Position numbers and translations under genes: made by a program. The notes under the pieces were generated by a model. It was given only the letters and a program-made list of their open reading frames with translations. It was not told the DNA's origin and searched no databases. Shown in pieces: positions 6,055-47,023 of a DNA stretch of 64,000 bases. The stretch's first letter is position 1. Each line of letters opens with the position of its first letter. The DNA is from Octopus sinensis (lineage: Eukaryota). The stretch lies in assembly GCF_006345805.1 (NCBI RefSeq), contig NC_043021.1:17980001-18044000 (forward strand), given 5' to 3'.

Positions 6055-6670
6055 TATGTACAGATATGTGTGTGTGTGAGTGTGTATGTATATATATGTA
6101 TATATGTGTGTATATATATGTATATATGTGTGTGTATATATATGTGTATGTATATGTGTATATATATACGTATATATGTGTGTATATATACGTATATATG
6201 TGTGTATATATACGTATATATGTGTGTATATATACGTATATATGCGTGTATATACTTATATATGCGTGTATATATACGTATATATGCGTGTATATATATA
6301 TGTATATATATACGTATATATGCGTGTATATATACGTATATATGCATGTATATATACGTATATATGTATGTGTATGTATATGTGTATATACGTTTATATA
6401 TATGTATATACGTTTATATATATATATATATGTATATACGTTTATATATATATATATTTGTATATACGTTTATACATATATGTATATACGTTTATATATA
6501 TATATATTTGTATATACGTTTATACATATATGTATATATGTTTATATATATATGTATATATGTGTGTATATATACGTATATATGCATGTATATATACGTA
6601 TATATGTGTATATATATACGTATATATGCATGTATATATACGTATATATGTGTGTTTATATATGTATATG
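6055..6670. repeat. Compound (TA)/(TG) microsatellite evolving into a ~20-bp minisatellite
   Basis: Recurring gtgtatatatacgtatatat and gtatatacgtttatata units; explains the I/Y/V/C-rich ORFs. Confidence 0.95.
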
Positions 6671-6966
6671 TAGGTTTAATTGTATGAATGAATGTGTGTA
6701 TTTGTGCAAATAAAAGTACTCTGTATTTATTCCCTTTTGCTTTCAAGATTTAAACTGAACTGACTTTTAATTGAATAGATTTTGATTTATTGTTGGCTGT
6801 TGCTGAGTAGTTCCATCAGGTTCTGGCTGATCTGGTATATAACATTTGATCAAGTTTTCAGGTTATAGCTATTGTTTCTTCATCAGACACATGTTTCCCC
6901 CTAAGATTTAGAATTTTAAAAACTCCCCTCTCTCTAATTTCATGAAATGTTTGAGGTAGATTTGAA

Positions 6967-7248
6967 TCATCATCATCATCATCATTTAGCGTCCACTTTC
7001 CATGCTAGCATGGGTTGGACGGTTCAACTGGGGTCTGTGAAGCCAAAAGGCTGCATCAGGCCCAGTCTGATCTGGCAGTGTTTCTACGGCTGGATGCCCT
7101 TCCTAACGCCAACCACTCCGTGAGTGTAGTGGGTGCTTTTTACGTGCCACCTGCACAGGAGCCAGACGGAGCTGGCAAACGGCCACGGACGGATGGTGCT
7201 TTTTACGTGCCACTGGCACGGGGGCCAGGTGAGGCTGGCAACGGCCAA
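6967..7248 (-). mobile_element. SINE family B copy with (GAT)n tail
   Basis: Highly similar to 38768-39126 and to the reverse complement of 17873-18184. Confidence 0.9.
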
Positions 7249-7252
7249 TATG

Positions 7253-7261
<9 letters not shown>

Positions 7262-7284
<23 letters not shown>

Positions 7285-7395
7285 CGTCTGTACTTGCGCC
7301 CCCAACATCGCCTAACAACCGATGCTGGCGCGTTCACACCCCCGCAACCTAGCGGTTCGGCAAAAGAGACCGACAGTCCAAGCACCGGGCCTAAA
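7262..7395 (+). mobile_element. Internal SINE-A fragment with strong T>C excess
   Basis: Aligns to about 12114-12225 with 15 T>C changes versus the family consensus. Confidence 0.85.
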
Positions 7396-7702
7396 AAAAA
7401 AACAAAAAAACACTATGAATGACTATCTAAATGTTTATCTCTAACATCAATATGATTGCAGGTTAAGGCAGCTAATACATATTTTCATATTTTGTTAGAA
7501 AAATAAACACACTCACACAAAAAACACCTTTGTGTTTTTTTCTAATAAGGCCTGTCTGCAGCTAAAGAAAGATCTCAAAGCAAATGAACAGATAATTATT
7601 CATTGCTAGGAATATAGCTCAAGCTTATCCAAAAACCCAGTCTTCAGTGACACCACTAATAATAACGTATATAAATGAGATATCTTTTTGTAAAATGTTA
7701 CA

Positions 7703-7865
7703 TCATCATCATAATCATCATCACTAAATGTCCCTTTTTCCCTACTGGTATGTGTTGGACAGTTTGACCAAAGCTGGTGAGCCAGAGTACTGCACCAGGT
7801 TCCATCGTCTGCTTTGGCATGGTTTCTACTGCTGGATACCCTTCCTAATACTAACCACTTAATGT
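7703..7865 (-). mobile_element. Degenerate SINE-B
   Basis: catcatc tail, gttggacagtttgac, gctggatacccttcctaatactaacc. Confidence 0.65.
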
Positions 7866-17872: not shown

Positions 17873-18184
17873 GGTGGCACGTAAAAGCACCATCCGTTCG
17901 TGTCCGTTGCCAGCATCGCCTGGCCCCGTGCCGGTGACACGTAAAAGCACCATCCGTTCGTGGCTGTCTGCCAGCTCTGTCTGGCACCTGTGCAGGTGGC
18001 ACGTAAAAAACACCCACTACACTTGCGGAGTGGTTGGCGTTAGGAAGGGCATCCAGCCGTAGAAACACTGCCAGATCTGACTGGGCCTGACGAAGCCTTC
18101 CAGCTTCACAGACCCCAGTTGACCCGTCCAACCCATGCTAGCATGGAAAACGGACGCTAAACGATGATGATGATGATGATGATG
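17873..18184 (+). mobile_element. SINE-B
   Basis: Three ggcacgtaaaagcacc-type units, gttggcgttaggaagggcatcc core, (GAT)n tail. Confidence 0.9.
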
Positions 18185-18345
18185 AATGTTTCATGATTAT
18201 AGATCTTCAAATTGTTAACTATATTTTAATCTTAGCTGAAGCACTGAGAAGTTGCTTCTTGGTTAAGAAGAAAGTGTAGGTTTTAAATTTGTTAAATTTA
18301 TCCAAGTTTCTGTAATGGGAAAATTATAGACTGTATCCTGAAATT

Positions 18346-28759: not shown

Positions 28760-31700
28760 ATAGAAATGCAGTCTTTGGATTGTGGGCTTAAGATTTACAG
28801 TGTTGAGTTTATGGAGATGTACTTGCATAGCAAGTGACTTGATCTGAGATTGTGTGCTGAAACAAACACAGTTGCAGCATGGAAGGTGTTTATAAGCCAT
28901 TTAAAAAATGTACATAAAAAAACCCATTAGACTCACTTCAGCATTTAAATTTAATTTGTGTCAAAATATTTTCGTTGCTTTGAAACCGCGACCTGTTCAC
29001 TGACAAAACTTTGCATTGAGTTTATAGAAGCATTATTGACCATTTTTATGTCTGTGTTGTAATGTAATTTCATATGAAAGATTCCATTAAAATTTTCATT
29101 GGTAATGATATGTGGTACAGATAATTCTATTTGACATTATTTCTGTTCTCATGGGTACTGTCAATGAGTTTTTTTCAAGTTTAAGCACGGCTATATTAGT
29201 TAACAGTTATTTATGAAAGAAAATATTGATGGTATGAACTTGGTCTGGAGTCGCAACGGTTTTGAATATAGCATGAAATTATCATAACTGCTGTAAATGG
29301 AAGGTAGAATAGCACAATGAGATAAGGCCTGCACTATTGTGCAAGATGATCTAGCTTAGAATTTGAGGAAATGGAATAAGGTTAGTAGAATGTTATAGCT
29401 TGAGTGAGCATTATATATAAAAAAAAAAAAGTTGGGGGGAAGAAAGAAATTCAAGAGTTGAATTTCAGATAATAATCATTATAGAACCATATGGAGAGAA
29501 AAGCTGTATGTTGATAAGATGATGAAGGAAATATCACAAGAAGCTGAGAGGTGTGGCTGAGAAATGAGAAAGTGTAGAGTGTATTATAAGTGTATTTATC
29601 AAAACAGTAATTGAAGTGAGAATTCTTGTGTTTGAAATGGTGTCATTACTACTTTTATGTAGCAGTGGGAGGAAGAGGAGGAGGGGGAAGGAAAGAAAGA
29701 AAGAAAGTGAAATCCTTGTAGTATTTAACAAACACCAATCCTTTTGAATAATGTTTTTAGATTTCAGTGTTTCTCTGCAATTATAATTATAGTTGAATGT
29801 AGTGATATGATATGATGGCCTTGTCAACTATAGCAAATGTGATACACTGACGGAGAGAGACAAACAGTTATTAATTTCCTTGTTGAATGAGGTATAATCA
29901 CATACAATCATTTGGTTGTGTTCAATCTTTGTTTTCGGCTTTAAACAAAACATTAAAGTGATAAATGTGGCCATAACACTTCAAATGTTCATATTATCAT
30001 GTATTGTTTGATTTCAGATAATAATAATAACAGACAACAATGAACCATATATAGCAACACATTAAGTCGACTGATTTGATTGAGAGGAATAAATTACATT
30101 TCTTCTTTTTTTTTTTTATCATCATTGCTTGACTAAGCAAAAAGATCATTTGAGATCAGATTTTTTCCACCAATTCCTGTCTGCATGTAAGACAGTCTTT
30201 TGTTAATTTAGTGGTTTTAGAAACAGTTCAGTTAATTTGGATATTGCTTGAAAATACACTTTATTAGTCAAGCAGAATTATTATCATTATTAATTATTTC
30301 GATAAAGATAGGTTCTATTGTATTGTGAAGAGTAAGCTAATCCCCACTCTTCTAACAGTTGTAGTCAATTATAGACATAATCTAATTTAATATGAAGCAG
30401 ACAGTAACGTGTACATAGAAAGAAGAAGTGACTAGGTTATCATCAAATGTCTGTACATGTTTCAGTGTGTTTATCTATTCTTTTGAATATTTACCTTTTG
30501 AGGCTACAATCCCACTGAAATTTTATTTAATTTCTGATTTGTATTTAATTATTGTTTTTTTTTTTACTTTTTATATTGTACATAAAGGGAGTCATCTTGA
30601 AAAGATTCAGCTATCAGATGATTAATTACAAACTGAATAAAGGGCAAACGATGATTTCAAATTATACTCCCACATTGTTCCTGCTATATAGTATTTTCAC
30701 TTACAAATTCCAATCACCTTCACTTACCATAAATATTTAAATCTAGGCTTGCTGATTTAGTCAGCTTTTAGAAAAACCACAGATACACTACTTCTTTGAT
30801 GCCTCTTCCTCCTCCTCCTCTTCCCCCCTGCCTCCATTCTCTTTGTGACTGTCAGTTAATTATGGAAACTTTAGTTCTGTTGTGAAAGCTGATTGGTGTT
30901 TTCTTTTCAAACATGGATTGACATTACTGATTTTTCCCTAAACTTCTAACGTGGAAGGTATTAGAAATTAGAACTCTTGAAATGTTGAACAAACTAGCAT
31001 CAAAGAATAGAAATATATTATAAATCTGTATGTGGTGATGATGATGATGATGATGGCATTACGACGACGAAACGTTTGTAATAACTCAGATTCCATTGCC
31101 TTAACCATAGTCAGGCAGGTCACCATCTGGCAGCAAATAATGGCAAATCTCAACCCACAAAGGGTTCCTTATTTGTTCTTTACAATCCACAGCTGCTGAT
31201 GAATGGAAGTTCTACTGCTGCATCTGGAAGTGGGCGGGGTGGGATGCAGAAAGAACTTTGGACCTATCATAATATTAAAAAATGTGATGTTTGTAACACA
31301 AATATTAAATAAATTACATATATAGCAAGCATCTTTTTAATTGCGTGTACACAAACGAACACGTCTATAATGAGACACCCGTTTGGATATAACCAAGGGA
31401 AGGCAGTATAGATTATCACTAGGAGGAAGAGCAGGTGATTAGAGAGAGAGGAATGAAGAGGAGGAGGTTGGGACCTGCAGCAAGCAATGTCGTGTGAATG
31501 AGGTGGGTTGGTGAGGGAAAACTGCAGAAGTATTCCTAGGGAACAGCTACTGTTCTGTTACATGATACCACCTCATCTTAAAAATTGCTAATTAAACTAG
31601 CTTTTATTTGTTTGTTTGTCATTCTAATGCTTTATCAACATCTTTAAGAATCTCAACCAGCTTCTTTACATAACACTTGCGTTTGTTTACCCTTAACCTT

Positions 31701-36711: not shown

Positions 36712-37941
36712 TCAGGTCATTAAGAATTAAATGTCTGATTTTGAACTGAAATTTTATTTTTATCTCAACAAAAAGCAATGTAGTTAATCAAAGTATATAC
36801 TTAAATTATCAACACAATTTTGCCATTTTATCAGTAGCTTATTTATGCCGGCAGCAAAGAATTCTGGAGAGCAAGAGGTGATGAAATCACGAAAGGCTGT
36901 TTTTGCATCTTCTTCGAATTTGAAACTTTTTCCTTGCAAAAAGTTGTCTAATGCCTGGAAAACATGATAGCCAATTGGTGTAAGGTCTGGTGAATATAGT
37001 GGATGACAGAGTACTTCCAAGTTCAATTCCTCTAACTTGAGTAGCGTTCTTTGTGCAACATGTAGTTGAGCATTGTCTTGCAAGAGAATTGGTCTGTCTC
37101 TATTGACCAATCTTGGTTGTTTAATTGCAAGTTCACCCATCATTTCATCCAGTTGGTTGATGTATACATCTGCTGTAATTGACTTACAGGTCTCCTGAAG
37201 CTGCAGTGGATGACACCAGTGCTGGACCACCAAACAGGCACCATTAGCTTTCTTGGGTGTATATTCTTTTTTGGATTGTGTTTTGGCACTTTGTCTCTAT
37301 CCAACCACCACACAGAATGCTGGCTATTGTTGAAAAGAATCCATTTTTTATCACATGTAACAATACAATGCAAAGAACAGCAAGTTTCAAGATAATGTGT
37401 CATTTGATGCTTATTCAGTTCATGTAGTACCCACTTGCCCAGCTTCTTTACCTTGTTGATTTGTTTTAGATGGTACAATACAGTTGGAATCAAAACATCA
37501 AACCTTATGACCTGCGTAGTTTGAGATGTATCCGCTTCCACTACAGTTTTCAGCTCATCATCATTCACCTTGGTCTCAGGTCTACCACGGGACTGATTTT
37601 CGAGATCAGAACTTCTTAAACCATTGATGTTCAGTGCACTCATTTGCCACATCATCACCAAATACCTCATTGATGTTTAGAGCTGTCTGGGATGCATTGG
37701 TTCCACGATGGAACTCATATTCATAAGCTACACGAATTTTTTATCTATCCATGGGCTCACAAAAATTGATTTACAAGAGAAAACTCACAATATAATCAGA
37801 CACCATTAATTGCAATTCGCAAAGTGACAATGCAACTCTTCAATGTTGTTAAACAAAGAATTGTCAGGATAAAACATTAGAGTTGATGACTGTCAAATTT
37901 GGTGCATAAGAAAATCAGACATTTCATTCTTAATGACCTGA
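36712..37941 (-). mobile_element. Full-length decayed mariner (Tc1/mariner) transposon
   Basis: 31-bp TIRs tcaggtcattaagaat(t/g)aaatgtctgatttt (30/31 match); TA at 37942-37943; inserted in a (TA)n tract. Confidence 0.93.
36784..37752 (-). pseudogene. Mariner transposase pseudogene
   Basis: YEYEFHRGTNASQTALNINEVFG (HTH region), SRGRP, WVLHEL (WVPHEL), VTCDKKW, LQDNAQLHV and HPLYSPDLTPIGYHVF (YSPDL; third catalytic D replaced); frameshifted. Confidence 0.92.
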
Positions 37942-38329: not shown

Positions 38330-38767
38330 CACACACTTGTTTCAGTCATTTGACTGCATCCATATTAGACCACCACCTTTAATGTATATTTTAACATCCA
38401 CTCTTCCATACTTGTATAAATTGAATGGAATTTGTCAAGGTGCAGTTTCTACAGCAGGATGCCCCTCCTGTCACCAATCCTCATCTGTTTCCCAGCAAGG
38501 TAATATTCCTCCACAACCACACATTGGGTTTTGGAAGAGTGGAAACAAAAGACATTGCTGGTAAGATGGTGATACTCTATTACAACTATCAGGCAATGTC
38601 AATACAAGGCGACAGTAGCTCAATATACGGACAGACATATGATGGCTGTTGACTCATTAAATGAATATGACCACGGTCAACTAAATAAAGTGTATCATAG
38701 CATTACATGTGGGCACAACAATGATTCTTGAATCCTGTCAGTGATTCACAGGACTTATCGCAGATTT

Positions 38768-39126
38768 CATCATCATCATCATCATCATCATTTAGCGTTC
38801 GCTTTCCATGCTAGCATGGGTTGGACGGTTCAACTGGGGTCTGTGAAGCCAGAAGGCTGCATCAGGCCCAGTCTGATCTGGCAGTGTTTCTACGGCTGGA
38901 TGCCCTTCCTAATGCCAACCACTCCGTGAGTGTAGTAGGTGCTTTTTACATGCCACCCGCACAGGTGCCAGACGGAGCTGGCAAACGGCCACGGACGGAT
39001 GGTGCTTTTTACGTGTCACCGGCATGGGGGCCAGGCAAGGCTGGCAACGGCCACGAACAGATGGAGCTTTTACGTCCCACCGGCACGGGGGCCAGGCGAG
39101 GCTGGCAACGACCATGAACGGATGGT
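38768..39126 (-). mobile_element. SINE-B
   Basis: Close match to 6967-7248 with an extra internal unit. Confidence 0.9.
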
Positions 39127-45022: not shown

Positions 45023-46066
45023 ATATGTTTAATTTGCTTCATATGTCAGCTAACACTTCTCTCTCATAATGTCTTCATTTTCTGGCTGAAAATGTTTTGT
45101 TTTTACTCTAGCAATGTATGACCTGAAGGAGGTTAGAAAAATGTCTGAATAATGGAAGAGCTGGTAGAAATTAATTGATATCACTGCTAAGAGCAAAACA
45201 TCAGTAAATTCAAACATAGCTCAAGGCCACAAATGTTGTGGTGGGGATTGACGCTAGTACATAACTATTTCTGGAAGGACAAATGGTAACGCCAGTCTGT
45301 GGGATGTTTCCTCAGACACTAAAGAAATTTGTAAGTTAATACTACAAGGTATTTTGTCTGCAGGTTTACTGATTGTGCTAGTAAGTAATTTAGTAGATAA
45401 ACCTGGGTTTGATTCTCAGTTATTGCTTTTTAAACTCTTTATATATCTGGCACCTTTATAAAACATGAACATTACAATTATCATTTTTCATTTCCTGAGA
45501 ACTTAATAAAGCTGATCGCATGAAAGATCAAGCAATTGACTATTTATTGCACTAATACTTGACCCATATATTTATCCCTTCTTAATTAAAATGTCTGAAA
45601 CTGTTTAACTGATTAAGTATGTAAATATGATTAGGGAAAAAAGTTACTGAATTATCTAAGTGTTTGACATGAGTTGTCATTAATCAAGTTATTTTAGAAA
45701 GGAAGAAACGGAAGGCATGTGGACTTTGTAAACCCTAACAAATCTACTCTGTCTAGGGGAACAGTAGATCTGAATAAATTGATATGGATTGAAGAGGACT
45801 CCAGATTTGCCCTAGTGCTGGTGTCATGATGAACAACATCCGATGCATGCTATAAAGCAGTTGGTGATAAGAAGGATATCCAACCCTAAAACAATGCCTG
45901 CCTCTGTCAAAAAGCCAAAATGATTTACTTACACAACCACAAAGATTGGCAGTTTTTCTCAAGAACTGTGACAGGAGGAGAGATGCTGAGATCTGTCCAA
46001 CCCATGCCTACATGTAATAACAGACATAAACTAATTCTTGAACTATATGTAAATACATAAATCAGA

Positions 46067-46610
46067 AATAAGACGGTGGATAGTACTAGGCAGAGAGGCA
46101 ATGGTCAGCATGAGCAGGGTCTGGAAGAGTAGAGACATCAGACTCGCTACCAAATGCAGATTGGTGAATGCAATTGTCTTCCCAATAGCAACATATGGAT
46201 GTGAGACCTGGACACTAAAGAAAGCTGACCAAAAGCGAATTAATGCATTCGAGCTTTGGTGTTGGAGAAGACTTTTACGGATTCCATGGACAGTGAGGCT
46301 CACCAATGGAGAAGTTCTTAAGCAGATCAGGCCGAAAATGTCGCTAGAAGCTAGGATCACCAAGCATAGATTGGCATATTTCGGTCATATTATGCGGAGA
46401 AAATCCCTGGAGAAGGACATCATGCTCGGAATGGTCAGTGGCAAGAGAGGAAGAGGCCGACCAAGAACCTGCTGGCTTGACACCATCAAGAGTGATACTG
46501 GAATGGACATAGCCAGTCTGAAAGAAGCGGCCCAGGATAGAACTGACTGGAGGACACTGATCCAACGAGTGACTGAGAGTCAACTTTGACTGAGCGGTTA
46601 GAAGAAGAAG
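46067..46610 (+). mobile_element. 5'-truncated RTE (BovB-like) LINE, young
   Basis: Uninterrupted C-terminal frame EIRRWIVLGREAM..TKCRLVNAIVFPIATYGCETWTL..INAFELWCWRRLLRIPW..YFGHIMR..GKRGRGRPRTCWLD..AQDRTDWR; (GAA)n tail; candidate TSD aaatcaga (46059-46066 / 46611-46618). Confidence 0.92.
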
Positions 46611-47023
46611 AAATCAGATGTAAAATGATGATGATATGTCTTAGTCTGTATATTGACAGTCTTTAGAGCATTGGATCAAACATTTCATGGTATTTGCTCC
46701 AACTTCCTTAACTCTGAGTTAAAATCCTGTTGAGGTCAATTTTTCCTTGGCAGAAGAGGGTTGGGCAAGATGCTTAGTGGTGTCTGCTCTGGTTCTTATA
46801 GCAGCACCTATGATGACAGTGATGCCAAGCTGCCTCAACTCAAATCATTGGCTTTTTTCTTGGATAAAGTTGTGGGAAAGGGAGACTTGCATGCATGTAA
46901 GGGCCACTGCCAGTCTTACTCAAATAGATAATTAAAAACAAGAAATTTAGCCCGGGTATGCCGATGTATGGCCAACCTTGAGTAATGGAGGCCCTATTTT
47001 ACATATATTGAGTCACAGGGCCC

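Follow-up and report, generated by a model that had tools for sequence, protein, structure and literature searches.

Candidate genomic copies of ADAR-hyperedited SINE RNA in an octopus: an antisense SINE-A arm joined to a tailed SINE-B, and a larger set of sense-strand SINE-A copies with A>G clusters

Retroelements that carry the marks of an editing enzyme in the genome itself have been described for vertebrates, in the form of APOBEC-edited LTR retrotransposons (Knisbacher and Levanon, PMC4866542); according to the accessible text of that study, non-LTR elements were left out of the screen and invertebrates were devoid of such editing. ADAR-type hypermutation has been reported for Rous-associated and avian leukosis viruses (reviewed in PMC12925331). 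At the level of RNA, hyper-edited clusters occur in repeats (PMC5625713; PMC9068888); the accessible sections of these papers describe the depletion of G upstream of the edited site as a trait shared by ADARs (Porath 2017, PMC5625713), give octopus the largest number of hyper-edited sites in the table of that study, and include a widespread repeat-directed class in the editing of coleoids (PMC9068888). Further related literature, available in part, comprises PMC5974252, PMC4758252, PMC4982230 and PMC5224506. In our search of the literature, which covered few subscription papers, ADAR-edited SINE copies fixed in a genome were unreported.

The locus described here lies in a 64-kb stretch of the Octopus sinensis genome (hereafter the window; coordinates refer to it unless stated otherwise), and combines parts of two repeat families. 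These, SINE-A and SINE-B, we take to be tRNA-headed, LINE-driven SINEs, the tRNA-like head having been read from the sequence; searches of the window with Rfam and ARAGORN gave 0 matches. At its left end, the locus has the (GAT)n 3′ tail of a SINE-B on the minus strand (6966–6986; six full units), where reverse transcription would have been primed; GAT units also end all of 20 unselected SINE-B copies. The tail is followed by the body of this SINE-B (6987–7247, minus strand), which is young, 5′-truncated and unedited, and which ends within tandem units of about 60 bases; tail and body together (6966–7247) are 94.5% like positions 38762–39053. A (TA)n(TG)n tract (7248–7284), the core of SINE-A, forms the junction with a SINE-A 3′ half (7285–7392), which reads in the sense direction on the plus strand, opposite to the tailed SINE-B, and is thus an antisense arm of the latter's strand; it carries 15 T>C changes when read on the plus strand, equivalent to A>G on the minus strand. 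SINE-A likeness ends in an A-rich run (7393–7413), spanned by contigs X2, X3 and X4 (see below), which may represent decayed A-rich SINE-A sequence, a tail or target DNA. As a sequence-only reading of this DNA had maintained, the minus strand is the sense strand of the adjoining SINE-B, and no SINE-A head was seen upstream of the arm. The 3′ simple-repeat tail and the end of SINE-A likeness at about 7392, which amounts to a 5′ truncation, are both traits of a retrocopy.

The same reading had pointed to TGAAT on both flanks. The two copies are present (6963–6967 and 7416–7420), and as a possible target-site duplication they are weak, being five letters long, with a two-letter overlap between the left copy and the tail; in other SINE-B copies target duplications are short or not evident. 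Elsewhere in the window, a SINE-B copy at 17874–18185 has ATGAATG on both flanks and adjoins a (TA)n(CA)n tract, and a compound (TA/TG) microsatellite of 587 bases, with a higher period of 22/44 bases, occupies 6083–6669, 300 bases to the left of the focal locus. Two protein-coding remnants were also seen. An open frame of 178 residues on the plus strand (46053–46612), followed by a short (GAA)n tail and lacking a Pfam match, presumably resembles the C-terminal end of an RTE-type LINE protein. A broken DDE transposase lies on the minus strand at 36784–37676, in two overlapping frames (PF01359, E 2.5e-13; PF13358 below the cut-off).

The changes in the SINE-A arm run in one direction. When 7282–7394 is compared with a consensus built from the most frequent letter in each column of 45 SINE-A 3′ halves, there are 15 T>C changes, the number originally claimed, at 7285, 7293, 7297, 7312, 7329, 7331, 7335, 7339, 7345, 7349, 7374, 7379, 7383, 7386 and 7391, together with eight others, slightly above the six or so in that claim (7292 G>A, 7298 C>G, 7314 G>A, 7338 G>A, 7377 A>T, 7378 A>C, 7387 A>G and 7394 C>A). 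The closest SINE-A copy among those compared, L005, differs from the focal arm by 15 T>C and five other letters, and has the same letters as the arm at 7298, 7314 and 7338; several of the "other" changes are therefore inherited variants. Positions 7312 and 7387 are known variant columns of SINE-A.

A second reference was drawn from 800 kb of unselected DNA plus the window (864 kb), which yielded 79 5′ halves and 73 3′ halves of SINE-A. At stable columns, the focal arm has T>C at 14 of 28 sites and A>G at 0 of 28 (binomial p 2e-19), against a background in the unselected halves of 53/5794 for A>G and 74/5579 (1.3%) for T>C. The largest counts in any unselected half are two A>G and four T>C, the latter among the 73 3′ halves. 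Five of the seven TA-context sites of the arm are changed, in agreement with the earlier count, and the SINE-B part is indeed unedited: A>G on its sense strand is 0/43, with one mismatch across 173 stable columns. The strand that bears the edits is also the one on which the adjoining tailed SINE-B reads in sense, which supports the reading of the changes as RNA edits. An APOBEC-type reading, which would appear as sense-strand G>A, was rejected, as the excess is A>G or T>C instead; G>A stands at 4/25 in the focal arm, 106/2059 in the set of sense-strand copies described below and 245/6607 in the background.

The reality of these letters was examined in assembled short-read contigs from three samples of two studies (two of the runs, X1 and X3, may be the source of the assembly). 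Among the runs listed as holding this sequence, whose types are assigned by guess, none is of RNA. An X3 contig spans 7297–7625 with no gap and two other letters, and has the C-rich version. The X2 and X4 contigs both span 7347–7836, X2 with three other letters, two of them at 7667 and 7676 in the right flank, and X4 with two, one of them at 7667; these flank differences mark other individuals. For X1, the piece among the matches listed begins at 7418, to the right of the arm. From 7297 on, at least 11 of 13 T>C sites were confirmed in one sample (X3), and from 7347 on, at least five of six in two samples of the other study (X2 and X4); the contig comparison skipped 7245–7296 as a repeat, a zone that includes 7285 and 7293. 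The possibility that the genome has consensus T's here, raised in the sequence-only reading, thus did not hold, the C's being present in X2, X3 and X4. An error of sequencing or assembly following the (GT)n tract would suit changes that begin right past a microsatellite and end in an A-rich run, and clustered sequencing errors do enter reference genomes, as the accessible part of PMC2873906 documents; moreover, the evidence consists of contigs, not raw reads, with 7245–7296 skipped. However, since the short-read contigs of three samples carry the burst, it is no assembly error, and an error at the focal locus, largely refuted by these contigs, appears very improbable.

The sequence is also single-copy. 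The best paralog, among the 40 of 2414 candidates that were scored in a genome of 2.72 billion bases, is 88% identical, and a motif of three edits from the focal arm has a single match genome-wide, the focal locus itself. The second objection that had been foreseen, a multi-copy C-rich subfamily, is ruled out by these two results. A related account, in which such a subfamily or ordinary drift with GC-biased conversion produced the C's, draws on 7312 and 7387, where single changes fall at known variant columns; however, it is at odds with a single-copy sequence, and a GC bias would add A>G on the same strand, where none is seen at the 28 stable sites. We hold it to be scarcely credible, and refuted within the limits of those searches. 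The focal burst is genuine, single-copy chromosomal DNA.

We consider it probable that the focal arm (7285–7392) is a germline DNA copy of an ADAR-hyperedited RNA, carried in through the SINE-B tail. Such an RNA would have comprised, in order, the 3′ half of SINE-A in antisense, the (CA)n(TA)n core, and SINE-B in sense with its (GAT)n tail. Its antisense arm would have paired with a sense SINE-A RNA, and ADAR would have turned about half of the adenosines of the arm into inosine, leaving SINE-B, without a partner, unedited. The reverse transcriptase of a LINE, primed on the SINE-B tail, would then have read inosine as G and stopped within the arm. Arm and SINE-B may have belonged to one read-through transcript, or the (AT)n core may mark a template switch that joined them. 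The action of ADAR on RNA, the priming on the SINE-B tail and the pairing with sense SINE-A RNA are inferences. Among the points against this reading are the target duplication, which is five letters long, and the A-rich run on the plus strand, which could be read as a sense tail.

The core of the original proposal, a read-through RNA hyperedited and then retrotransposed through the SINE-B tail, gained from the reality of the bases, their one-way change, the strand, the sister copies and the L153 locus (see below); the donor was not found. Of six matches, none is an unedited donor with the focal junction: the sole match to the exact gapped junction pattern is the focal locus, and the five other copies that share the focal SINE-B end each inserted separately into an (AT)n tract; a donor may have diverged, been lost or be missing from the assembly. 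Such tracts are a frequent site of SINE-B copies, and in one case (L037) the site is a SINE-A core. As to an empty site, four more distant runs were compared: both focal flanks are found in separate contigs of X14, with none bridging, and X5, X9 and X16 have no flank piece among the matches listed, which were dominated by SINE contigs. The left flank (6880–6919) is without contig cover even in the close runs, of which there are four, and such a lack proves nothing by itself. Between a point 10 kb ahead of the window and position 30,000, every other SINE-A copy is on the plus strand; for a retrocopy, pairing would have taken place at the donor or with a partner in trans.

If edited RNA is retrotransposed, A>G on the sense strand is expected far more often than T>C, and this is what the genome holds. 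A first sense motif (five A>G at UA or AA sites, up to two mismatches) was found at 32 places, two exact and 11 with one mismatch, where about 1.8 were expected by chance, and a second, in the 5′ half, at 39 places against 0.03, both expectations being computed for some 235,000 SINE-A copies. A T>C mirror motif of similar stringency (4 of 6) had 0 matches, as did reversed-pattern controls. The two sense motifs together mark 66 places, five of them common to both and some of them duplicates; a crude capture-recapture calculation gives about 250 edited SINE-A places, likely an underestimate. All but two of the 32 places and nine of the 39 were taken in as loci. L062 (a duplicate of L061), L157, L158, L169, L180 and L184 (the same places as in the first set), and L165, L166 and L178 (tandem or nearby duplicates) were dropped before the counts. 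To avoid circularity, changes were counted outside each search motif, in the letters of the assembly. So counted, 29 loci have A>G at 284/1792 and T>C at 32/1759 sites, and 22 further loci 83/1154 and 22/1292; the A>G excess has p<0.001 in 31 of the 51. The larger result is this population of sense-strand edited SINE-A copies, of which the focal locus is a rarer antisense form.

Among the neighbours of the changed adenosines within the clusters, G is depleted on the 5′ side, the trait that ADARs share. The rates are 0.44 after U (63/144), 0.38 after A (117/312), 0.19 after C (42/225) and 0.09 after G (15/165; column-level test, p=0.0009), and 0.43 before G (92/212), 0.25 before C, 0.24 before A and 0.17 before U (column test, p=0.095), the twins L042 and L185 having also been removed for these counts; background SINE-A changes have no such bias. 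The genome-wide comparison that the sequence-only reading had called for thus returned dozens of strand-specific A>G outliers with 5′ G depleted, while 3′ G, also predicted to be enriched, ranked first at p=0.095. When the neighbour rates of the sense set were applied to the changed T's of the focal arm, the permutation p was 0.17 (14 edited and 14 unedited sites); with editing at 50% and 28 sites this is unsurprising, and it lends no support.

The clusters lie on whole or 5′-truncated SINE-A copies, dozens of them on many contigs (L038–L067 and L156–L185). L064 bears the heaviest A>G load (22/38 and 8/30 outside the motif); L044 has changes even in its tail repeats. At L164–L166 (G000:C15:20470711-20471341), an edited SINE-A is followed by two tandem copies of its last 300 or so bases, each beginning at the edited motif, which could be a true tandem duplication or an assembly repeat. 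The edits overlap little between loci (median Jaccard 0.19, 490 pairs), and the loci belong to several subfamily backgrounds; these are therefore mostly separate events. Unselected DNA contains no edited half (0/79 for the 5′ and 0/73 for the 3′ half), as expected for a rare class. Two of the common A/G variant columns of SINE-A (94 in the 5′ half, 101 in the 3′ half) have the contexts UAC and UAG, in which editing is most frequent; letters that now define SINE-A subfamilies may have originated as edits of source copies. Sense motifs for SINE-B had one match and none in the genome, and that for a third SINE family one match; the A>G effect seems largely confined to SINE-A. The internal fold of SINE-A, considered as an editing substrate, is no better than that of shuffled sequences (z −1.3).

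Two of these loci, L041 on C4 and L042 on C6, have 14 of 15 edits in common; they share the SINE alone, with unrelated flanks, from which it follows that one edited source gave rise to two insertions. This bears on a further alternative, namely that the letters changed in DNA already in place: R-loop DNA may have been deaminated, repair synthesis may have been error-prone, or cDNA of an edited host transcript may have served for conversion. Y-family polymerases place G opposite T, and neither an empty nor an unedited orthologous site was seen at the focal locus (no bridging contig), which leaves room for such a change. However, the L041/L042 edits travel with the element and not with the flanks; the two polarities should be equally frequent, or else a link to inverted neighbours should be seen, whereas about 66 sense A>G places stand against two or three T>C arms, and 13 of 50 edited copies lie beside an inverted copy as compared with 19 of 61 (L159 also being left out of this count), no excess; and at the focal locus the change goes no further than the core, leaving the adjoining SINE-B untouched. 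Change after insertion is therefore quite unlikely.

Looser T>C motifs were used to find further antisense arms. They gave seven matches at 3 of 6, five of them chance-like, and then eight, of which seven were chance-like. Outside the motif, 12 of the 15 are thus indistinguishable from chance, and the exceptions are the focal locus, L153 and, weakly, L188, all three upstream of an opposite-strand tailed element. L153 (G000:C18:18229383-18232411) has an inverted SINE-A 3′ half with T>C at 22/41 sites (assembly letters) and 26 other changes; its junction with the head of a complete sense SINE-A copy lies at the core. In that sense copy, A>G is present at 10/47 sites of the 3′ half, against 0/31 of the 5′ half (Fisher p=0.005). 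The stretch forms a single long hairpin; the half of the copy that pairs carries A>G, and the half that does not pair carries none; reciprocal changes on both arms are as the editing of a fold-back RNA predicts. The sense-set neighbour rates gave p=0.11 for the changed T's of its arm. L153 is built like the focal locus (tail, element, core, antisense arm, other half missing), and its sequence has the look of a fold-back RNA that was edited on its two arms and then retrotransposed. L188 (G000:C3:10570083-10573113), a whole SINE-A with nine T>C and no A>G (T>C 6/63 outside the motif), stands head-to-head with a 5′ half in sense orientation (A>G 3/26), which continues into a tailed SINE-B; L188 is possibly a lightly edited third case.

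In a different origin of the focal locus, a piece of SINE-A would have gone in along its own sense direction, with priming at the A-rich run, gained its T>C changes during copying, either from dG placed opposite rU or from deamination of the new strand in the RNA:DNA hybrid, and been joined separately by SINE-B at the (AT)n core. Errors of the rU:dG type arise at low dATP. The plus strand does have an A-rich run at 7393–7413, six of 72 unselected 3′ halves are without a 5′ half anyway, and the focal copy lacks a significant ADAR neighbour bias (p=0.17); in addition, hyperactive ADAR mutants can edit DNA in hybrids, although the review that reports this, as far as its accessible text goes, calls DNA editing in reverse-transcription intermediates unknown (PMC12925331). 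Insertion in the SINE-A sense, however, leaves unexplained both the many sense-strand A>G copies and the reciprocal, pairing-limited changes on the two arms of L153; it also predicts T>C bursts in ordinary whole copies, and of the 15 T>C motif matches, 12 are chance-like and the remaining three all lie upstream of an opposite-strand tailed element. We judge this origin unlikely.

Ordinary sense SINE-A RNAs, hyperedited and retrotransposed in the same way, likely account for the A>G-clustered copies, dozens to a few hundred in number. More generally, ADAR hyperediting of SINE RNA has probably been a recurrent germline mutagen in this genome, which would hold a few hundred fossil SINE-A insertions, some edited copies having spawned more, and rare antisense arms recording the duplex partner. 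Edited RNA letters would in this way pass directly into the inherited sequence, and would do so in the animals most renowned for RNA editing. With dozens of such insertions, independent of one another and patterned like ADAR editing, DNA alone suffices to test the rate at which edited RNA is retrotransposed, the mobility of edited copies, as with L041 and L042, and the preference of the germline enzyme; if the reading is true, the genome preserves, in a form that can be dated, both the activity of editing in the germline and its choice of sites. There is a practical side as well, in that genomic A>G clusters can pass for RNA editing if reads map to the wrong copy.

In non-LTR 5′ transduction and in template-switch chimeras, extra sequence is found upstream of a tailed element within one insertion. 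The focal locus has the same kind of joining, and differs in that what was added comes from another SINE, as an antisense arm, and bears a record of editing. Of known kinds, the nearest are the APOBEC-edited LTR elements of vertebrates and the hypermutated avian retroviruses. The former, as presented in the accessible text of the study, are alike in their strand-biased, fixed clusters of a single change, found by comparison with the family, but theirs is G>A, from editing of cDNA in vertebrate LTR elements, whereas here it is A>G, on the RNA strand of an invertebrate SINE (PMC4866542). The ADAR-type hypermutation of the avian viruses likewise affects, in the portion of the review that deals with it, nearly half of the adenosines of paired regions as A>G; those cases are exogenous retroviruses, whereas ours are chromosomal copies of a non-LTR SINE at dozens of independent places (PMC12925331). 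The hyper-edited clusters of repeat RNA, as described in the sections available, show the same dense A>G in SINE duplexes and the same depletion of upstream G (PMC5625713; PMC9068888). Downstream, A is enriched in invertebrates according to the former, whereas G ranks highest here, though not significantly (PMC5625713). Those clusters are differences between RNA and genome, whereas in the copies described here the G sits in the DNA (PMC5625713; PMC9068888).
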